Shown here piece after piece: positions 14,547-27,176 of a stretch of 64,000 nucleotides of DNA. How positions within the stretch are numbered: position 1 is the stretch's first letter; each line of letters begins with the position of its first letter. A program made the translations under genes and the position numbers. Origin of the DNA: a bacterium (GTDB lineage Bacteria > Patescibacteriota > CPR2 > UBA1875 > CAIMLA01); contig JBAXUE010000001.1 in assembly GCA_037129835.1 (NCBI GenBank), forward strand, positions 26,085-90,084, given 5' to 3'. Below the pieces are notes generated by a model. That model saw only the letters and a list, made by a program, of their open reading frames with translations, ran no database searches and had not been told where the DNA came from.

Positions 14547-15376
14547 TATAAAAATGCTTCCCAGTTATCTTCTATCTGCGCGAGAGTAAATGTCGGCCCA
14601 TCTGTGCAAACATATAGCTTGCCACAAGTACAGTGTTGGCATTTACCAATCCCACATTTCATTCTTCGCTCAAACATAAGGTTGATATTTTCTTTTTTTA
14701 AGCCTTTTTTGATTAATACATCAGAGGTTGACTGATACATTATAGATGGTCCACAAATAATTACCGTAGCGTCTTTGGTTATTTCTACCTTTTTGACTAT
14801 ATCGGGGATAAATCCAGACAGACCTTGCCACTCTTTATCGGCCTTATCAACGGTAATATAGGTTTCGGCGATTTTATTCATTATGGCAAGTTCTCCCTTG
14901 AATAGGAGGTCGTCAGGGGTTTTTGCGCCATAAATAAATGTGAGTTTGCTTACCATGCTTTGGTTTTCTTTTATCTGGCGTACTATCGACATTAGGGGGG
15001 CTATGCCGATTCCTCCAGCGATTATTACAAGTTCTCTGCCGTAGATTTCCTGAAAACTAATATTATTCCCAAGGGGTCCTTTGATATATGCAGTATCTCC
15101 GATAGAGAGTCGGTTGATCGCAAAAGTATTATTTCCGACGCTTCTGACGGCGATTTCAAATTCTGGAAGTGATGATGGAGAAGTGGTGATAGTCAGCGGG
15201 GATTCCCCAAATCCAGGAATCGACACCATAATAAATTGGCCAGGCACAAAGGTAAAATCTCTACCATCAGCCGTCTCAGTAAACTTAAAGCGAATAGAGC
15301 GAACGCTCGGACTCTGGCCGTTCGTAGAGATAACTTCAACCTTTTTGTACTCTTTACTTTCGTTTGTCATTTTCAA
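14546..15376 (-). CDS. hydG: hydrogenase gamma subunit (FAD/NAD(P)-binding, PyrK-like, 2Fe-2S)
   Basis: Ferredoxin-NADP-reductase-like fold. C-terminal CGIGKCQHCTC 2Fe-2S motif. Confidence 0.8.
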   Translation of the reverse strand: MKMTNESKEYKKVEVISTNGQSPSVRSIRFKFTETADGRDFTFVPGQFIMVSIPGFGESPLTITTSPSSLPEFEIAVRSVGNNTFAINRLSIGDTAYIKGPLGNNISFQEIYGRELVIIAGGIGIAPLMSIVRQIKENQSMVSKLTFIYGAKTPDDLLFKGELAIMNKIAETYITVDKADKEWQGLSGFIPDIVKKVEITKDATVIICGPSIMYQSTSDVLIKKGLKKENINLMFERRMKCGIGKCQHCTCGKLYVCTDGPTFTLAQIEDNWEAFL

Positions 15377-18130: not shown

Positions 18131-20044
18131 ATGGGTAAAATAATCGGAATCGATCTCGGTACAACTAATTCAGCTATGTCGGTAATGGAAGGTGCGGAGC
18201 CAAAAGTAATACCAAATGCAGAAGGCAATCGCACCACACCATCGATAGTGGCTGAATCAAAGAATGGTGAACGTTTGGCAGGACAGGTAGCGAAGCGTCA
18301 GGCTGTTATCAACTATGAAAATACTATATTTTCAGCAAAGCGCCTCATTGGACGTTCTTTTAATGACGAAGAAGTCAAAAAAGACATCGAACTTATGCCT
18401 TACAAGATTGTCAAAAGTGGCGCTGGGGTCAAAGTAAAGATGGGCGAAAAAGAGTATAGCCCTGCAGAGATTTCTGCAATGATCCTTGGTAAGCTAAAGA
18501 CTGATGCAGAAGCCTATCTCGGCGAGCCTGTGACGGAAGCAGTTATCACTGTTCCTGCTTACTTCAATGACGCTCAAAGACAGGCAACAAAAGATGCCGG
18601 TAAAATCGCCGGTCTAGATGTAAAGCGAATCATCAATGAGCCTACAGCCGCCGCTTTCGCTTATGGGCTAAACTCAAAGAAAGAAGAAAAGGTAGCAGTG
18701 TATGATCTTGGTGGCGGAACATTTGATGTTTCAATACTGGACATCGGAGACGGTATTATTGAGGTTTTGTCTACCAATGGTGACACTCACCTCGGCGGTG
18801 ATGACTTTGACCAAGAAATCATGAATTTCTTAGTTGATGAGTTCAAAAAAGAACAAGGAATCGACCTCAAGAGCGATACCGCTGCCCTTCAAAGACTCAA
18901 AGAAGCTGCTGAAAATGCCAAAATTGAATTATCTTCAAAGACTGAAACAGATATAAATATTCCATTTGTAACAGCCGATGCTAGTGGTCCAAAACACTTA
19001 AATATCAAGATGACTAGAGCGAAACTCGAAGGTATAGTAGAGACACTAATAAAGAAAACCCTAAAACCCTGTGAAGTTGCCCTTAAAGACGCTGGAATCA
19101 AAAAGACTGACATCAATGAGATTATTCTTGTTGGTGGTATGACTCGTATGCCAGCCGTCCAAGCTGCAGTTAAAGAATTCTTTGGTAAGGAGCCTTTGAA
19201 GGGAGTAAATCCTGACGAAGTAGTTGCTATCGGAGCAGGTCTCCAAGGCGGACAGCTTTCTGGTGATCTTAAGAACACAGATATCTTACTTTTAGATGTC
19301 ACACCATTGTCACTTGGTATTGAGACTCTTGGTGGAGTATCTACGAAGCTGATCGAGAAGAATACTACTATTCCGACAAGTGCTTCTCAAGTATTCTCAA
19401 CCGCTGCTGACAATCAAACAAGCGTAGAAGTTGTGGTTCTCCAAGGTGAACGCGAATTTGCTGCTGACAACAAATCACTAGGCAGATTTACTCTAGACGG
19501 TATTCCACCAGCACCTCGTGGTATCCCACAGGTTGAAGTTAAGTTTGATATCGATGCGAACGGTATTGTCCATGTAACAGCTACTGACAAAGCTACTAAC
19601 AAAGAGCAAAAGATTACCATCACAGCTTCTTCAGCTCTTACCGATGACGAAATTGATAAGATGCAAAAAGACGCAGAGGCTCATGCAGAGGAAGATAAGA
19701 CGCGCAAAGAGTTTGTTGACCTCAAAAATATGGCAGACGCGCTTGTTTACACAGCAGAAAAGACTCTTAAAGAGGCTGGAGATAAGGCTAAAGACGAGGA
19801 CAAAAAGGACGTTGAGGCCAAAGTCGAAGAGCTCAAGAAGGTCAAAGACGGTGATGACAAAGACGTAATTCAGAAGGCTTATGATGAATTGTCTGAGGCA
19901 ATTCAAAAAGTCGGAGCTTCTATGTATGCTCAGCCAGAAGAAGGGGCCGGAACTGACGAAAATACGTCAGAAGATGCCAAAACAGACGAACCTGTTGAGG
20001 GTGAAGTTGTTGAAGAAGAAAAGAAAGAAGATGACAAGAAATAA
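18131..20044 (+). CDS. dnaK: chaperone DnaK (Hsp70)
   Basis: [18 protein letters not shown] and IVLVGG signatures. 637 aa. Confidence 0.95.
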
Positions 20045-20177
20045 GGTAATTTCGTACAAAATATTTGTCTAAAAGTTTTACTACTTTCAAGTATTTTGAA
20101 GCAAAATGAGTAATATAGTTATTCATCTTGAGGCTCGGGGAAGACTCCTCGAGCCAAATAGGTGAAGTAATGCAATC

Positions 20178-20190
20178 ATGACACGGACAG
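20178..20190. repeat. direct repeat ATGACACGGAcAG (left copy) flanking the GIY-YIG cassette
   Basis: 12/13 identical to 20577-20589. Confidence 0.5.
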
Positions 20191-20266
20191 GAAAATAAAA
20201 GCGTAAATTACTAAGTCCAAATAATATTAAACTGTCATTCCTGCGTATGCAGGAATCCACACAATT

Positions 20267-20557
20267 ATGAAAACATATTATGTCTACATTGTTACAAATA
20301 AAAAGAATGGTACACTGTATATTGGTGTGACCTCAAATCTCCCAAAAAGGATATTTGAACATAAACAAAAACTTGTGGACGGTTTTACTAAAAAGTATGG
20401 TTTAGATAAGTTGGTTTATTATTTAGAGACAAGTGACGTTAGTACAGCAATACAAAAAGAAAAACAAATGAAGAAATGGAAGCGCGAATATAAATTAAAT
20501 GTTATTAACGAATTGAATCCAACCTGGAAGGACTTATATATTGAAATTATCAAATAG
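20267..20557 (+). CDS. GIY-YIG nuclease family protein (small, UPF0213-like)
   Basis: YVYIVTN...GTLYIGVTSNLPKRIFEHK. Flanked by hairpins ATTCCTGc-gtat-gCAGGAAT (20237-20256) and ATTCCTGA-acagg-TCAGGAAT (20558-20578). Confidence 0.8.
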   Translation: MKTYYVYIVTNKKNGTLYIGVTSNLPKRIFEHKQKLVDGFTKKYGLDKLVYYLETSDVSTAIQKEKQMKKWKREYKLNVINELNPTWKDLYIEIIK

Positions 20558-20576
20558 ATTCCTGAACAGGTCAGGA

Positions 20577-20589
20577 ATGACACGGAGAG
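20577..20589. repeat. direct repeat ATGACACGGAgAG (right copy)
   Basis: Contains the dnaJ SD (GGAG). Matches 20178-20190. Confidence 0.5.
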
Positions 20590-20594
20590 TATAG

Positions 20595-21719
20595 ATGGCC
20601 GAAAAACGAGATTATTATGAAATTCTAGGTGTACAAAAGAGTGCCACTGATGATGAGATAAAAAAGGCTTATCGTAAGCAAGCGATGAAGCATCACCCCG
20701 ATCGTGGTGGTGGTAAAGAGTCAGAAGAAAACTTCAAACAAGCAAACGAGGCTTATCAGATACTTTCTGATCCACAAAAAAGACAACAGTATGATCAGTT
20801 TGGGCATAACGGTCCTTTTGGTGCCGGGAATGGTCCTGGGGCAAATCCATATGGTGCTGGGGGCCAGCAACCTGGTGGGTTTAACGGGCAGGGCTTTAAT
20901 ATTAATATGGATGACTTAGGAGGGTTTGGTGATATTTTTGAATCATTCTTTGGTGGCGGTGGCGGAGGAGGACGTTCTCGTACGCGAAGAGGTTCTGATA
21001 TTCAGGCTGAAATACGAATCAACTTCGAGGAAGCTGTCTTCGGCGTGGAAAAAGATTTTTCACTACTCAAGATGAATGGTTGTGATAGATGCAAGGGTAA
21101 TGGAGCTGAACCGGGTAGTGGCCAAGTAACTTGTGCTACTTGTCATGGTAAAGGACAAGTACAAACTGAACAACGAACTATCTTCGGGACTTTCGCCCAA
21201 GCCGCTGTTTGCCCAGAATGTCATGGTAAGGGTAAGTTTCCAGAGAAGAAGTGCACCAAATGCCGAGGCGAAGGTAGGTTAAAAGAACAAGTAGTGCTGA
21301 AAGTAAAGATACCTGCCGGAATAGACAATGGTCAGACAATCAAAGTCACGGGTAAGGGAGAGGTGGGAGAGGCTGGAGTTCCAGCGGGCGATTTATATCT
21401 ACTGATCCGTGTTTCAACGGACAAGAGATTCGTTAGAAATGGCTTTAATATAGAAGCGGAAACAGAAATAACCTTCCCGGCGGCAGCTCTCGGGACAACG
21501 GTAGATGTAGAAACCATCGATGGCAAAGTTACTCTCAAAATTCCTGCAGGAACACAAAGTGGCAAAGTATTTAGACTTTCTGAGCGTGGCATCCCTCATC
21601 TCTCTGGTAGGCACAGAGGTGACCACCTAGTGACCATATTAGTACGTACTCCGACTAAGTTATCAGGAAAGCAAAAGAAACTCCTTGAAGAGTTCTCAAA
21701 CGATAAGGGCTGGTTCTAG
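20595..21719 (+). CDS. dnaJ: chaperone DnaJ
   Basis: J-domain HPD, G/F-rich linker, four CxxCxGxG repeats. Confidence 0.95.
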
Positions 21720-21754
21720 GTATATAAACATACATATATATTGAATAATCGGTA

Positions 21755-21994
21755 TTGCTATACTATAATTTGTTTATGATAAGCAAAGAACTTGAAAATA
21801 AATTAATATTACTTGGGAAAAACTATCCCGGTATTTCAGAAGAGTTAATGAAACGGATAGAGTTTTTTGCTATTCAAATAAATGAGAATCCTAAAGAATT
21901 TGATAACAAGCTCATAGCCCTTATGGGAGCTTTTTCTAATGAAATCGATGAGGCAGACATGGTTCAGTTAAAAAAACAAATTGGAGAAATTTGA
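21755..21994 (+). CDS. hypothetical small protein
   Basis: 79 aa ORF. Weak evidence. Confidence 0.3.
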   Translation: MLYYNLFMISKELENKLILLGKNYPGISEELMKRIEFFAIQINENPKEFDNKLIALMGAFSNEIDEADMVQLKKQIGEI

Positions 21995-24003
21995 TGGCAC
22001 AAGAAGATAATGAGATTCGCGGGGGAAAAACAGAAAAAAGAGAAGCCTCTGCCGAAAAGCCACACATCCAGAGCAAAGAAGAACTAGATAAAGAGATCAA
22101 GGGTGAGATACAAGACAAGTCAGATAGGGCGGAAAGAATAATCCTAGCTGCGCCAATACCGCATTTGGGTGGCGAGGCGGGTCTTGGTTTGGTGGCGGCA
22201 GTTGTCACGGCCAAAGAATGGGTCTCAGAAAAAGCCCCAAACTCTAAAGATGTTGTGAGAAAAGTAGGACTATTTCTTGCTAGTTTGGGTATTGGCGCAG
22301 CCTCTATCGGTGGCATCCAGGCAGGGACGCAAACCGAGAGTAGTAGTGGTGGAGATTATAAACTTTCACCGGAGCCCATAACCGCTATCGCTCCAGAAGG
22401 GACGACGTTCACTGAAACCGATGAACCGATCGCTGTCAGAGTATCCGATATTATGTCTCAAGAAGCTGTTACGCACGAAGGAGTGGTAATGTTTGAGGAT
22501 ATACCTGTCACAGAATCAAACAAAAAAGCTATCGCCGAATCAAAAAAATGGTTAGAAAAAAACGAACATTTACGTGGAGAACAAAGACACGAAGTATTGG
22601 TAGAATATTTGGACCAACAAATGGCTAAAATACAGACAATGATGGAAGGCGGTAGCTCCCAATCAGATATTGTCGAAGTGGCCGCGGAGACTCAGGCCAC
22701 AGCAAATGAATTTAACAGTTTGGTGAAGGCTGGAGATATTACCGACATTTTAGAGGCAGCGGTAAAAGTGGGCCTTGTTTCTCCTGACAAAGCAAAAGCT
22801 GTTGCAAGGGAGTTAACTCAAAAAGGTACAGTCACAGAGATAACTAGGGCTGATGGCTATCAGATAAAAACTGATGATCAGGTTTTTCGACTAACAAAGG
22901 GCGATATGTTCACACAGATAATAGGTAATGCCCCAATGTTTGAGCCGTCGGCGACACCTATTGGGATGCATGAGGGAACAGAGGTCGAAGGTGTTTATGA
23001 TGTCGAAGTAGTTGATCCAGCAAGCGCGGATAAGATCAAGTCAAACGAAGTATTAATGCGTCAGCTGGCAGAGAATAATTGGCCAGAATACCGTGCTTCT
23101 CTGGTGCAAAAAGCGCGACAAGCTGGCGGAGAAATTGATGAAGAGACTGCCAAAGAAGCTTTCATTAAGTTTGTAATAACTCAAGAAAAGCAAACGATAC
23201 CACTAGTAACGAATGACGAAAGAGATGTGCAATTAGACACAAGCGATCTTGAGCTTTTTGGATATCAAATTTCCACAGAATTTCAATTAAAGGAATTATT
23301 GGGGCTGGATATACTCCCAACGATAACCTTTCACGCTGAGAAATTAATTGGCGTTGACGGAAGAATAATCGATATTGGAGGCGACGTAGACGTATTTGGT
23401 GCAAAAATAACTAAAGAAATGTTGTGTAAGGGTAATTTCGGAATATTTCTGCATCTTGCAGATGTAAATATTTATATTCCTCCAGAGGTTGTTAGCAAGT
23501 CTGTAATCACGGGTGATATGAATATCCTTTTACTATTTTTGGCAGCAGCGTTACCTATTGTAGCACTAAGGTTGAGGGCAGAGCCTACGCCGCCAGAAAT
23601 CGTACCGCCAGGTTTTCCACCGGTTAAAGTTCCACCGATAAAGGTTCCCACCCCGAGAATCACTTGGCCAAAGATTCCGCCCACTACGATTGATATTGAA
23701 GGAGAGTTAGGTCTTAGGAGGGTTACTAAGCCAGGAACACCTGGCATAGAAGACGTACCACCAATACCACCTCGAAATCCAAAAGATTTTGATGAGGGCA
23801 GACAAGACATCAGCGGGAAACCAAATAATATTACTCATGGACAAGTTACTACTACTGGCGGTCCTTATACGCCGGGAGGTGTTGAAAAAAACCCTAGTTA
23901 TGGAAGACTAAAAGAGAGTCGGCCAAAAGGGCAAAGAGGTAAATCAGGCGCTAGAAATTATCGAGGCAATCAGAGCGCACAAAAGCAAAATACGGGTAAA
24001 TAA
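21991..24003 (+). CDS. hypothetical membrane-associated protein with proline-rich C-terminal tail
   Basis: 670 aa with several hydrophobic segments. C-terminal PTPPEIVPPGFPPVKVPPIKVPTP. Confidence 0.5.
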   Translation: MMAQEDNEIRGGKTEKREASAEKPHIQSKEELDKEIKGEIQDKSDRAERIILAAPIPHLGGEAGLGLVAAVVTAKEWVSEKAPNSKDVVRKVGLFLASLGIGAASIGGIQAGTQTESSSGGDYKLSPEPITAIAPEGTTFTETDEPIAVRVSDIMSQEAVTHEGVVMFEDIPVTESNKKAIAESKKWLEKNEHLRGEQRHEVLVEYLDQQMAKIQTMMEGGSSQSDIVEVAAETQATANEFNSLVKAGDITDILEAAVKVGLVSPDKAKAVARELTQKGTVTEITRADGYQIKTDDQVFRLTKGDMFTQIIGNAPMFEPSATPIGMHEGTEVEGVYDVEVVDPASADKIKSNEVLMRQLAENNWPEYRASLVQKARQAGGEIDEETAKEAFIKFVITQEKQTIPLVTNDERDVQLDTSDLELFGYQISTEFQLKELLGLDILPTITFHAEKLIGVDGRIIDIGGDVDVFGAKITKEMLCKGNFGIFLHLADVNIYIPPEVVSKSVITGDMNILLLFLAAALPIVALRLRAEPTPPEIVPPGFPPVKVPPIKVPTPRITWPKIPPTTIDIEGELGLRRVTKPGTPGIEDVPPIPPRNPKDFDEGRQDISGKPNNITHGQVTTTGGPYTPGGVEKNPSYGRLKESRPKGQRGKSGARNYRGNQSAQKQNTGK

Positions 24004-24019
24004 TAAAAAGGAGAACATA

Positions 24020-24517
24020 ATGGCAGAACAAAATAGTCCCAGTCCTGAAGGTTCAGAAAACTGGCACCCAACAGAGGCATTTGAGGCAGATGGGCAGAAT
24101 GCAGGTAAAATAAAAGATGTAGAGCTCGCACAATCGCTGGCAGAAAGCGAAGAGAAAATTCGCTATCCAAAAGGACTGAATAGAATATTTTCAGAGATGG
24201 ACCATGAAACCATGATTATAATCGACAGATTAGCTGGTAAATTTTTTCCTGACATAGAGCCAAGAACATTTGAAGAAACCAGAGAAGAAAGGGCAAAAGA
24301 CTTTATCAACGGTATTTTATATCGTGAACTTCTCGACAGAGCTATGGAGAAAAAAGTCAAAGATAATGCCAAGACAAAGGCCTATACTTCTTGGAACGCA
24401 CTTCGAGACGCAACACTAGAAGTAGATCAGGCAATCGAAGAGGCAACCCACGCACGTAGAGAGCAATCTAACATAAGAAATAAAGAAAAAGCGGAAGCTT
24501 TCCGAGAGGCAGCTTAA
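24020..24517 (+). CDS. hypothetical protein
   Basis: 165 aa. RBS aaggag upstream. Confidence 0.45.
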   Translation: MAEQNSPSPEGSENWHPTEAFEADGQNAGKIKDVELAQSLAESEEKIRYPKGLNRIFSEMDHETMIIIDRLAGKFFPDIEPRTFEETREERAKDFINGILYRELLDRAMEKKVKDNAKTKAYTSWNALRDATLEVDQAIEEATHARREQSNIRNKEKAEAFREAA

Positions 24518-24596
24518 GTCTATATACTTTTCAAGGAATTCTAGAATATTGTTCACGGGATAATAAAACAATTTAATGCAGTATTTGAGGCGGTAA

Positions 24597-25784
24597 ATGG
24601 TAGTAATCGATGAACCACAAAACATAGAGAATAGTGATAATGAGCCGAATTTAGAAGGGAATCCACCGCCAGCTATTCCATATCCTACACCTCAAGTTGA
24701 AGCTCTGCCACCCACAACACTACCCGTCGCCGAGTTTAGCAATTTTGGAATATCTAGTAATGAAAGTTTTAGTTCAGAAATAGATGGGTCGTCAAATCAA
24801 CATAAATTTATAAAAAACATGCTGACCTTTTTATTTATTACATTATTTTTATTTTTTTCCGCGAATCTAGTAATATCTATTGCCATTCAACTTATGCTGG
24901 GTCAAATAAGGGGCGATATATCTTTTATGTACAAAGAGTTACCTTTATACTTTTTTCTTCTATTACCAATTTCTGTACTTCCCGTATCCTTGTTTTACAT
25001 TCTGATGAAAGTCAGAAATATGTCCAAAAAATCATGGATGTCGGCTGTAATCTTCCTGCCGATTCTGCTTCTCGCATATTTTTTATGCCTATTTAATCTA
25101 CAACAATTGATGAATAAAATGGCCACGATGGCGGGCGGCACGTCGAATTCTACCATTGGTATCAATAAGATAATATTAGGAGGCGGATCATATATTATAT
25201 TTGCTGCGTTGGCATTATCTGCTTGTATATTAGTTATAAATTACAAAAAATTTATAAATGAGGACAACAAAATACACAAGAAAGGTATAATATTTACCTT
25301 CATATTAGGGTTTTTAACAATTGGAATTACAGTTATTTTTGTTGGCAACGCATGGCTTGGCTCTTACGAAAAACCATTTATTGGTTATTCAAAGGCGGAG
25401 AAAGTACTAGGAAAAAATCCCGTATATTTCAGTTATTTACCAGCGGGTATTATTTTGGATACAGCAATTAGCTTCGTAAGTACAAATACCCTTAATATTT
25501 TATTTAGTAACCCAGACAATCTGGTTGACACGGAAAAGAAGATAATTGTGATCGAAAAAGATAAAGATAAGTATATCGAAAGTAAACCAAACAGCACCTG
25601 GACGACAAAAGACGTCCTTAGAAAAGGAATAAAATATAACATCAGCAGTAAGAATACTGATTCTGATAGCACAATGACTGTTATGAATTTTGAGAAAAAT
25701 AGTTTATCGTTATCGTTGATGACTTTGGATAATACATATATAACTCAAGAAGAATTATTCAAGGTGGCTGAGTCGGCATATTAG
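24597..25784 (+). CDS. polytopic membrane protein
   Basis: 395 aa with at least six hydrophobic segments after a Pro-rich N-terminus. Confidence 0.5.
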   Translation: MVVIDEPQNIENSDNEPNLEGNPPPAIPYPTPQVEALPPTTLPVAEFSNFGISSNESFSSEIDGSSNQHKFIKNMLTFLFITLFLFFSANLVISIAIQLMLGQIRGDISFMYKELPLYFFLLLPISVLPVSLFYILMKVRNMSKKSWMSAVIFLPILLLAYFLCLFNLQQLMNKMATMAGGTSNSTIGINKIILGGGSYIIFAALALSACILVINYKKFINEDNKIHKKGIIFTFILGFLTIGITVIFVGNAWLGSYEKPFIGYSKAEKVLGKNPVYFSYLPAGIILDTAISFVSTNTLNILFSNPDNLVDTEKKIIVIEKDKDKYIESKPNSTWTTKDVLRKGIKYNISSKNTDSDSTMTVMNFEKNSLSLSLMTLDNTYITQEELFKVAESAY

Positions 25785-25785
25785 A

Positions 25786-26427
25786 TTATACAAGCCCTTG
25801 ATTATCGGTAATAATACCCGATACATTCCTCATATTTTGTATTAATGCGAGATCTTCTTTGGTTTTAACATCCCAAATAATTATTTCTTTATCAAATATA
25901 GAAAATAGTAGAGATAATTTATTTAATAAACTATATTTAGGTACAAACAACTCGAAAAAAGGCAGATATAGTAGATTTTTGATAAATCTCTCAGATAACA
26001 ATAAACCTACTTTGATAGAGGGGAATTCCTTATTAATCTTCTTTAATGATTTTGGATAGAAAGAAGAAATAATATATCCTTCGTTTTTAATATATTTTTG
26101 AGTTAAATTAATGACTTCAGCTTCGTATCCAACCTCTTTTAGCTCAATATCTAACTTTATTTTATGAGCTACGAGCTTAAGAGTATCTTCAAGTGTTGGT
26201 ATGTCTGGGTATAGTTTCTGTAATTCGTTTAGCGTTAAATCGCATAGCTTAGCATTCTCTAATTTTTCATCGTGGAAAACTACTAGAGTGCTATCTTTGA
26301 GCCTTCTTACGTCAAGTTCTATTCCATAAAAGCCAGACTTTATCGCCGTTTCAAAGGCAGCGAGGGAATTTTCGGCTTCTGTTTCATGAGCACCCCGATG
26401 TGCATATTTGTTCATTTGTTTTTCCAA
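25786..26427 (-). CDS. glycerophosphodiester phosphodiesterase (GDPD) family
   Basis: YAHRGAHETEAENSL...ELDVRRLKD...VFHD motifs. Confidence 0.75.
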   Translation of the reverse strand: MEKQMNKYAHRGAHETEAENSLAAFETAIKSGFYGIELDVRRLKDSTLVVFHDEKLENAKLCDLTLNELQKLYPDIPTLEDTLKLVAHKIKLDIELKEVGYEAEVINLTQKYIKNEGYIISSFYPKSLKKINKEFPSIKVGLLLSERFIKNLLYLPFFELFVPKYSLLNKLSLLFSIFDKEIIIWDVKTKEDLALIQNMRNVSGIITDNQGLV

Positions 26428-27176
26428 GAAGTCTCAAAGAAAGCCTTGATTGCAAAGAATACCAAAGTGTCGTCGATGGTAAAGCCATAAGGCTCTTTTT
26501 TGTTGTATTTGATAAAGGTAACATTGTCGTCGTAAATGAATATATCCATATTCCGTGGCATCCCCGGCATATCAACATATTTCTTTTTCCATAGTAGCTT
26601 TGCAAGCACTTTTGGGTCGTGTTTCGTGTCTGTATTGATAATCTCTCTTATCTCGATGTTTTTCGCGATTCTCTCAGGCCGAAATTTTCTCTCTAACCAT
26701 GCCTCGAGGTAAGTGTTTTTGCCTTGCTCTGAAAGGATTAACAGTAGTTCACTGGGATGTTTTTTAAGCATGTCTGTATATAGCTTTTGGACTCCTTCTA
26801 TACCGTAAAGAACGTGTATCCCAGGCCGATCCTTGGCTAGGCTGTAGAGGCTTTTTAGTTCTGGCATGGCATCGTTTAGGTCCTCTCGGTAGGTTTCTAA
26901 AAGTCTTATGTTGTCGGTACATAGCTGAGTGAGTATCTCCGGGTCTTCAGGATTATAGCGAATCTTGTTGTGCCTTGCATCTTTCTTTACGACACCTTTC
27001 TTCTCTAGGTTAGCAAGTATGATGTAAGCATTTTGTCGAGAAACTTTCATTCTCTCGGCTATTTCTGGTGGAGTTAGTTCGCCATTTTCTAGAAGGAGCC
27101 GATAGCACTCAGCCTCGCTTTCGGCTAATCCAGCCATTTCAAAGATATCTTTTTTCATAAAAGTAGCATAGCACAT
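26412..27176 (-). CDS. winged-helix transcriptional regulator (TrmB/MarR-like HTH)
   Basis: N-terminal LAESEAECYRLLLENGELTPPEIAERMKVSRQNAYIILANLEKKGVV. Confidence 0.55.
   Translation of the reverse strand: MCYATFMKKDIFEMAGLAESEAECYRLLLENGELTPPEIAERMKVSRQNAYIILANLEKKGVVKKDARHNKIRYNPEDPEILTQLCTDNIRLLETYREDLNDAMPELKSLYSLAKDRPGIHVLYGIEGVQKLYTDMLKKHPSELLLILSEQGKNTYLEAWLERKFRPERIAKNIEIREIINTDTKHDPKVLAKLLWKKKYVDMPGMPRNMDIFIYDDNVTFIKYNKKEPYGFTIDDTLVFFAIKAFFETSWKNK

Follow-up and report, generated by a model that had tools for sequence, protein, structure and literature searches.

The 64-kb stretch of DNA analysed here (the window), from a Patescibacteria-like metagenome-assembled genome (MAG), very probably contains an Ssn module between its dnaK and dnaJ genes. 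In this module an ssnA-like gene, encoding a 96-residue GIY-YIG protein, lies between two cognate Ssn recognition hairpins (SRMs), forming a discrete, horizontally moving cassette of 350 bp that has been inserted before the dnaJ ribosome-binding site and is polymorphic in the population. Comparison with other loci and strains shows that the cassette is bounded, that it occurs in different loci, that it is polymorphic among near-identical strains and that it is more conserved than its flanks. The dnaK-dnaJ spacer comprises positions 20045-20594 (550 nt) within the hrcA-grpE-dnaK-dnaJ operon. The features of the locus are listed below in window coordinates; L001 and L002 are the loci of the two closest homologues, and L164, L165, L166 and L168 are relatives with an empty spacer.

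18131..20044, + strand: dnaK, left flanking gene, in the operon hrcA-grpE-dnaK-dnaJ
20132..20155, + strand: native dnaK-dnaJ intergenic hairpin GGCTCGGGGA-agac-TCCTCGAGCC, outside the cassette (from folding and relatives)
20178..20585, + strand: additional DNA compared with the empty alleles, ~408 nt (alignment with L164, L165, L166 and L168; boundaries inferred, within a few nt)
20178..20190, + strand: left direct-repeat copy ATGACACGGACAG; no hairpin, 43 nt outside the left SRM, in DNA absent from the empty alleles
20233..20582, + strand: SRM-ssn-SRM cassette, 350 bp, the unit common to unrelated genomic contexts (ends of blastn alignments with L001 and L002)
20233..20257, + strand: left SRM, an NTS-like Ssn recognition hairpin, T-GTC-ATTCCTGCGTATGCAGGAAT-C (GTC cleavage determinant, 20-nt palindrome, 3′ C)
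20267..20557, + strand: ssnA-like gene for a putative 96-residue single-domain GIY-YIG nuclease of the Ssn family (Pfam, homology, invariant Y7/Y18/E65)
20557..20582, − strand: right SRM, T-GTC-ATTCCTGACCTGTTCAGGAAT-C, inverted relative to the left SRM
20577..20589, + strand: right direct-repeat copy ATGACACGGAGAG; its first 6 nt are the outer end of the right SRM, and the other 7 nt come from the dnaJ leader, including the Shine-Dalgarno sequence GGAGAG
20595..21719, + strand: dnaJ, right flanking gene

The protein and its flanking hairpins

The 96-residue open reading frame (ORF) matches the GIY-YIG family of Pfam (PF01541, E 4e-16, residues 4-76) and contains no other domain. More than 3000 homologues of 94-110 residues, with 60-80% identity, occur in many phyla, whereas an exact search for the protein itself retrieved no recorded contig. 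The product of the Neisseria gonorrhoeae ssnA locus is 47.8% identical over residues 6-95 (tblastn E 2e-23, blastp E 5e-34). The Ssn family has been described by Chenal et al. (Nat Commun 2025, PMC11893778), with the 94-residue single-domain GIY-YIG protein SsnA of N. meningitidis (CDD cd10448) as its characterised member, and is delimited there by homology to Neisseria SsnA at E < 1e-10; the E-value found here, with the N. gonorrhoeae orthologue and not the N. meningitidis protein as the reference, is far below that limit. Mutation of Y6, Y17 or E64 abolishes cleavage by the meningococcal protein (PMC11893778), and the corresponding residues Y7, Y18 and E65 are invariant across 34 homologues, with the same spacing of 11 and 47 residues. 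By its sequence, the protein is an Ssn-family (ssnA-like) putative nuclease. The only NCBIfam match is a sub-threshold one to TIGR01453, a group I intron endonuclease family (29 bits against a cut-off of 56), and a profile of the family matches UPF0213 structures weakly (1zg2, E 9e-5; 1ywl, 0.008). A phage origin is rejected, as a homologue is present in 0 of 50,697 phage genomes and in 36 of 2.9 million IMG/VR contigs.

The gonococcal reference locus (L163, NZ_CP119142.1, 1881319-1882388) is surrounded by NTS copies, and the ssnA frame of this strain lacks an in-frame ATG where the start would be expected. PLSDB lists two complete N. gonorrhoeae chromosomes (2.17 Mb) as plasmids.

SsnA of N. 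meningitidis binds the NTS hairpin repeat CGTCATTCCCGCGMAVGCGGGAATCYRG in single-stranded DNA only and cuts a few nucleotides upstream of it; mutagenesis has shown that the GTC before the palindrome governs cleavage and that the C after the palindrome governs binding (PMC11893778). Both hairpins in the window have this layout, with GTC directly 5′ and C directly 3′ of a palindrome of ~20 nt. The left palindrome is ATTCCTGC-GTAT-GCAGGAAT (20237-20256) and the right one is ATTCCTGA-ACAGG-TCAGGAAT (20558-20578). The left hairpin corresponds in its layout to the NTS, and the same sequence class borders the homologues in L001 and L002. Folded as single-stranded DNA, the left palindrome reaches −8.2 kcal/mol (z −5.0) and the right one −6.1 kcal/mol (z −3.4). 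The motif ATTCCTG-N3-9-CAGGAAT has two matches in the 64 kb, both of them these palindromes, and none in 100 shuffled sequences. A GIY-YIG ORF between dnaK and dnaJ, bracketed by two near-identical palindromes, had been proposed in an earlier interpretation of the locus (the sequence-only reading), and both elements of that description are borne out.

The similarity between the two ends extends further than that reading had noted. An inverted repeat reaches past the palindromes, with TGTCATTCCTG (20233-20243) and CAGGAATGACA (20572-20582) complementary at 11 of 11 positions, so that the right direct-repeat copy starts with 6 nt that belong to the hairpin element. The two hairpins are mutually inverted, and their GTC ends point outward. 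The arrangement is compact: the left hairpin ends 9 nt before the ssn start codon, and the TAG stop codon shares 1 nt with the right SRM, its final G being the complement of the C located 3′ of that hairpin on the minus strand. The ssn start lacks a recognisable Shine-Dalgarno sequence (CACACAATT-ATG in the window) and has the left hairpin ~6-30 nt away, as is also seen in L001, L002 and most other loci.

A strict hairpin scan of the 64-kb window reveals no SRMs beyond the two flanking copies, so the hairpins are not dispersed in many copies there, and tblastn and blastn searches of the window with the cassette yield no further copies either. An initial, looser hairpin detector was discarded, as it gave ~110 matches in the real and the shuffled sequence alike, and a hairpin-like match at 15201-15224 was dismissed because it lies inside a coding region. 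In a promoter and terminator scan nothing rises above chance except the right SRM itself. At Rfam gathering thresholds three tRNAs are the only matches, none of them in the spacer.

Homologous cassettes and allelic states of the locus

The closest homologue (P0002, 81% identity) is encoded in L001, between ychF and a hypothetical gene, and the second closest (P0003, 77% identity) in L002, between uppP/bacA and a VTT-domain gene. Both genes are bracketed by the same hairpins, TGTCATTCCTGCGnATGCAGGAATC ... GATTCCTGCATnCGCAGGAATGACA, and in blastn comparisons L001 (77%) and L002 (69%) align with the window over 20232/3-20582 only. The sequence-only reading had suggested a search for other cassettes with the same hairpin ends; these two loci provide them, and the remainder of the window contains none. 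When cassettes from different loci are aligned in pairs (232 comparisons), the alignment ends cluster 1-2 nt outside GTC on the left (68) and outside GAC on the right (52), and hardly ever extend beyond. As delimited by these alignment ends, the discrete unit that is shared is TGTCAT...ATGACA, which in the window is 350 bp long and spans 20233-20582.

The same architecture is observed on a larger scale in 74 metagenomic homologue loci with at least 100 nt of flanking DNA on each side. An SRM-like hairpin is present on both sides, in the same inverted orientation with outward GTC, in 48 of the 74 loci; 19 have a hairpin on one side and seven have none. The same GTC-stem-loop-stem detector fires in 4% of control windows. 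In the published survey an NTS-like SRM was found near 71% of homologues, and on both sides in 42% (PMC11893778). Typical cassettes are 345-430 bp long, with a left hairpin that ends 6-30 nt before the start codon and a right hairpin that begins 0-20 nt after the stop codon. The collected hairpins also show strong stem covariation, which is not independent evidence since the detector demanded pairing.

Eight loci (L084, L088, L098, L143, L151, L152, L155 and L159) carry tandem partial copies of a hairpin 5′ half directly outside a full SRM. These consist of ~8 nt of flank, GTCAT and ~6 nt of stem, with a period of 18-20 nt; an example is the repeated TATGTCATTCCCGCTTCTCT of L098. These copies may be scars left by slippage or repair where Ssn nicks. 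Their presence at several loci indicates that local duplication of hairpin ends is a recurring by-product in the Ssn family, though the repeat copy in the window is on the far side of the cassette.

To find the corresponding site without a cassette, close relatives were taken from the protein database, as the GTDB species representatives have DnaJ proteins of at most 55% identity (nearest Falkowbacteria and other Patescibacteria) and are too distant for comparison of an empty site at the nucleotide level. L164 is empty: a spacer of 143 nt, without ssn and without SRM-type hairpins, separates the end of dnaK from dnaJ. Its spacer equals that of the window from the dnaK stop codon through the native hairpin at 20132-20155 and diverges afterwards. 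L171 and L170 are filled and share the right junction of the window, CAGGAATGACACGGAGAGTATA(G/A)ATG. The dnaJ genes of L171 and L164 are 99.3% identical in nucleotide sequence, and five of the ~8 differences lie at nt 27-48, beside the junction; judged from this alignment, they represent a filled and an empty allele of near-isogenic strains. The spacer is likewise empty in three relatives at a greater distance, L165, L166 and L168 (DnaJ 78-81%), and therefore the empty state is taken as ancestral. The distance from the native hairpin to the dnaJ ATG is 29-32 nt in all four empty relatives. L164 is not the product of a deletion between the direct repeats, because it keeps no copy of the 13-mer. 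The claim of the sequence-only reading that a discrete cassette has been inserted in the heat-shock operon is thus well founded, with L164 as the empty and L171 as the filled state, and with the same unit in L001 and L002.

Comparison of the window, L170 and L171 reveals that the cassette is more alike than the gene beside it: identity is 91-96% in the ssn part and 97-100% in the 37-nt junction including the right SRM, versus 80-87% in most of dnaJ. It follows that the cassette is younger than the lineages that carry it, that it apparently arrived at the same site in each lineage with short flanks and that it is dispensable. In L170 a 2-nt deletion (GTTAGTA--GCAATAC) causes a frameshift in ssn, while the right hairpin and the junction are intact; the cassette can decay in place. 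The allele pattern fits transfer by homologous recombination or a homing-like process, and also a selfish element.

Two further differences between the strains were observed near the insertion. Identity between window 20595-21000 and L164 267-670 belongs to a mosaic, in which the end of dnaK and the spacer up to the native hairpin are 97-100% identical, the first ~400 nt of dnaJ 80-88%, and the sequence further on 95-100%; this suggests a recombination tract starting at the insertion. Directly after dnaJ the window has a 4.7-kb block (21720-26413) that is missing from L164 and L171, where a TrmB-like gene (window 26412-27176) directly follows dnaJ. The block contains four ORFs without a Pfam match, including one of 670 residues (21991-24003), and a GDPD-family gene (25786-26427), and is a second strain-variable insertion beside the heat-shock operon.

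Proposed mechanism and competing explanations

By analogy with the Neisseria and Wolbachia homologues, the SRMs would fold into hairpins when the DNA is single-stranded, i.e., during replication, transformation or repair. The Ssn protein would bind the folded SRM, for which the sequence of the palindrome and the 3′ C would be required, and would nick the same strand a few nucleotides 5′ of GTC, leaving double-stranded DNA and RNA uncut. With the GTC ends pointing outward, the nicks would fall just outside both ends of the cassette, on opposite strands. The cassette entered between the conserved native hairpin and the dnaJ ribosome-binding site, and between strains it appears to move into the same locus with short flanks, by homologous recombination or by a homing-like transfer of alleles. 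GIY-YIG enzymes hydrolyse DNA without rejoining it, and a hairpin substrate is missing from the empty site; if the nuclease contributes to mobility, it would therefore do so via host repair or recombination.

Several observations weigh against the reading of the locus as a mobile Ssn cassette. That the nuclease promotes insertion is uncertain, since characterised Ssn members do not cut double-stranded DNA (PMC11893778) and the empty allele has no SRM. The activity of this protein is predicted from the Neisseria and Wolbachia homologues. The left junction is seen in the window alone, since L170 and L171 begin inside ssn, L172 begins inside dnaJ and L173 stops 58 nt after dnaK. The outward-GTC layout is not universal, as the NTS copies nearest ssnA in L163 face the opposite way compared with the window. 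This reading does not account for the 13-nt direct repeat, which is discussed below. Finally, the published degenerate SRM pattern, HGTCWYN(0-2)YYVSBRHN(0-5)WNVSBRGN(0-2)RNCYNB, has no match in the window and recovers neither hairpin.

The pattern misses the hairpins of the window because one compensated stem pair is T:A instead of C:G, which the pattern disallows on both sides. Among 129 hairpins adjoining ssn homologues (L001, L002 and L083-L162) it recovers 53. It matches 23 of the 30 hairpins of the ATTCCCG class, none of the 24 with an ATTCCTG stem, the second commonest class in this sample, and none of the five with an ATCCTGA stem. The mismatch is read as a limit of the search pattern and not of motif architecture or membership. 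As ATTCCTG and ATCCTGA stems escape the pattern, surveys that use it undercount the system.

The direct repeat itself is real. The copies ATGACACGGACAG (20178-20190) and ATGACACGGAGAG (20577-20589) are identical at 12 of 13 positions, a score that only four of 3000 shuffles of the left spacer reach against the right spacer; the repeat is thus improbable by chance, and the sequence-only reading was correct in pointing to ATGACACGGA(C/G)AG and also in stating that its right copy supplies the dnaJ Shine-Dalgarno sequence (GGAGAG, 5 nt before the ATG). The ~408 nt of extra DNA (20178-20585) both begin and end with ATGACACG. Among the fetched loci nothing informative matches the leftmost 55 nt (20178-20232), of which the 52 nt at 20178-20229 form part. 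The left copy was considered as a degenerate hairpin and rejected (−0.4 kcal/mol, z 0.06). Displaced repeats with at least 11 of 13 matching positions occur in three other cassettes, and in at least two of these (L133 and L151) they are explained by extra or partial SRM copies. A nick in the minus strand ~4 nt 5′ of GTC, as made by SsnA of N. meningitidis, would fall at ATGACACG|GAGAG, within one base, which is the inferred right boundary of the extra DNA; this coincidence is suggestive only. The 13-nt repeat is probably a by-product of the arrival of this copy and not a target-site duplication common to the family.

A more far-reaching interpretation holds that SRM-ssn-SRM is an autonomous mobile element of ~350 bp whose sole protein, a hydrolytic GIY-YIG nuclease for single strands, would drive its spread; nicks in single-stranded DNA just outside the two outward-facing hairpins would release or prime a copy, which host repair then installs elsewhere. 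The terminal redundancy of 8-13 nt, with ATGACACG at both ends and the right end within ~1 nt of the predicted nick, would be the footprint of a longer-than-unit circular or rolling-circle-like intermediate. If true, this would define a new class of prokaryotic transposable element, and the smallest autonomous element of all; it is nevertheless regarded as doubtful. NTS-ssnA-NTS has been likened to an insertion sequence and to RAYT/REP, with mobility put forward as a hypothesis (PMC11893778), and no later paper was found in the literature that demonstrates mobility of the cassette. Of the properties by which insertion sequences are recognised, the unit displays terminal inverted repeats, filled and empty sites in close relatives and occurrence in different loci; an abutting target-site duplication is absent, as is a recognised transposase (DDE, HUH, serine or tyrosine), the GIY-YIG domain being the only one present.

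Alternatively, the locus may hold a resident, domesticated module that is presently immobile, in which the hairpins act in the operon as RNA or as DNA, e.g., on transcript stability or on the dnaK:dnaJ expression ratio, and the nuclease modulates recombination or transformation. Neisseria SsnA does modulate transformation, the 64 kb hold a single cassette, and SRM hairpins without ssn recur in or beside the dnaK-dnaJ spacer of other Patescibacteria, with a distance of 13-16 nt to the dnaJ ATG in L009, L015 and L019, like that in the window. However, near-isogenic strains manage without the cassette and one copy is frameshifted, while the hairpin stems are unrelated between genomes, which points to independent arrivals. 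The explanation is unlikely as an account of the locus, and it concerns consequence rather than origin, so that it would be compatible with mobility.

The sequence-only reading regarded the repeats as a target-site duplication, i.e., an IS-like transposon would have duplicated the 13 bp of ATGACACGGA(C/G)AG upon insertion. The significance of the repeat, the presence of terminal inverted repeats and the lack of the unit in a near-isogenic strain all agree with this view, and excision of one repeat copy together with the intervening 386 nt would leave a plausible dnaJ leader with its Shine-Dalgarno sequence. The details of the junctions, however, make such an event quite improbable. The left copy is 43 nt away from the left hairpin and its inverted repeat, so that the repeats do not directly border the element. 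The right copy is composite: its ATGACA corresponds to the outer SRM end, which is conserved in every other cassette, and to be target DNA as well it would need a 1-in-4096 coincidence. The sequence-only reading had proposed to look in relatives for an empty site with one repeat copy; all four empty relatives (L164, L165, L166 and L168) have at the position of the repeat only (A/G)GAGAG, the dnaJ ribosome-binding site (GAGAG only in L164), and not ATGACACGGA. Removal of one repeat unit from the window leaves 40 nt between the native hairpin and the ATG, ~8 nt above any empty relative. In 52 two-hairpin cassettes there are no abutting direct repeats of at least 4 nt at offsets 0-2, and the one 3-mer is at or below the permuted expectation. 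The protein of the cassette has no transposase domain.

Still less probable is a free-standing GIY-YIG homing endonuclease, which would cut the empty allele as double-stranded DNA, with repair copying in the cassette and co-converting the flanks. I-TevI and the T4 Seg proteins share the GIY-YIG catalytic domain and show presence and absence at a locus with co-conversion-like flanks. The polymorphism at a single locus, the greater similarity of the cassette than of its flanks, the differences between L171 and L164 within ~50 nt of the junction and the sub-threshold TIGR01453 match are all in line with such a process. Those enzymes, however, have 200-250 residues and a DNA-binding domain, and cleave double-stranded DNA at cognate sites that lack the intron or gene, whereas the protein here has 96 residues, short of the expected size of more than 200 residues, lacks a DNA-binding domain and belongs to a family whose characterised members act on single-stranded DNA only. 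Close homologues occupy many unrelated sites instead of one cognate site, and plain homologous recombination after DNA uptake would yield the same co-conversion pattern. Chance repeats and palindromes around an ordinary housekeeping gene of the UPF0213/YhbQ type can be dismissed in spite of the weak UPF0213 profile match, given that two matches to the hairpin motif are observed where none is expected, that 65-90% of homologue loci have the same flanking hairpins and that Neisseria ssnA is matched far better (E 5e-34).

Related systems, spacer context and significance

The closest counterpart of the cassette is the SsnA/NTS system of Neisseria. Both comprise a single-domain GIY-YIG protein of ~95 residues with the same Tyr/Tyr/Glu set (48% identity) and flanking hairpins built of GTC, a palindrome (ATTCC...GGAAT) and C. 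The NTS stem is ATTCCCG (C:G), whereas that of the window is ATTCCTG (T:A); the hosts are, respectively, a symbiont of the Pseudomonadati and a Patescibacteria-like organism; hundreds of NTS copies per genome contrast with two SRMs in 64 kb; and the GTC ends point outward here, unlike those of the NTS copies closest to ssnA, which have the opposite orientation. The published work on the family (PMC11893778) does not include filled and empty alleles, which the locus in the window provides.

RAYT/REP systems (REPtrons, with a REP-associated tyrosine transposase between REP hairpins) similarly place one nuclease gene between inverted copies of a recognised hairpin, and the SRM pairs without a gene in L009, L019 and L024 resemble the gene-less REP pairs (BIMEs). 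In contrast, RAYT is an HUH/Y1 enzyme that forms a covalent 5′-phosphotyrosine and can rejoin DNA, while GIY-YIG enzymes hydrolyse only, and the two have no relationship in sequence or fold. The "peel and paste" elements of the IS200/IS605 family likewise rely on single-stranded DNA, subterminal hairpins and cleavage a few nucleotides outside them, and produce no target-site duplication; however, their hairpins are on the same strand at both ends and they use an HUH transposase, whereas the window has one hairpin on each strand and no known strand-transfer activity. UPF0213 proteins (E. coli YhbQ and B. halodurans BH0048) resemble the protein in size and fold superfamily, and differ in that the profile match is weak (E 9e-5) and no association with hairpins has been described. 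CDD separates UPF0213 (cd10456) from Ssn (cd10448).

The cassette sits just downstream of the native hairpin and before the dnaJ Shine-Dalgarno sequence. The native hairpin folds at −10 kcal/mol, and the same pairing, with different stem sequences, is found at the same place in L164, L165, L166 and L168; it probably acts within the operon as a terminator, attenuator or processing site. In other Patescibacteria, gene-less SRM pairs (70-100 nt, first the + and then the − orientation) and solo hairpins are present in the dnaK-dnaJ spacer or after dnaJ, at the following positions:

L009: 2900-2978
L015: 2957-2982
L019: 2510-2585, 2885-2981 and 4100-4179
L024: 4102-4170
L166: first 70 nt of the spacer

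The hairpins that precede the dnaJ ATG by 13-16 nt in L009, L015 and L019 are solo and on the minus strand. An uncultured Elusimicrobiaceae MAG (L054, 2325-2700), from a different phylum, has an independent ssn cassette between dnaK and dnaJ with 54% protein identity and other stems, followed by a small ORF and another hairpin pair. As the stems differ between genomes, the hairpins and cassettes of the dnaK-dnaJ spacer represent separate arrivals. The spacer may be a favoured landing place, with the reservation that these loci were chosen around dnaJ and that their numbers are small.

For the host, the insertion places 350 bp with two stable hairpins inside the heat-shock operon, which may change the expression of dnaJ. 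For the family, a cassette of this kind (SRM-ssnA-SRM) has been published before; what is new is the variant with an ATTCCTG stem in a host of the candidate phyla radiation, the group in which pattern-based surveys notably undercount the Ssn system. The locus offers natural comparative evidence for mobility of Ssn cassettes, comprising near-isogenic filled and empty alleles, a decaying allele, bounded copies elsewhere and a cassette that is younger than its flanks. Together, the filled, empty and decayed alleles make the question of cassette mobility testable.

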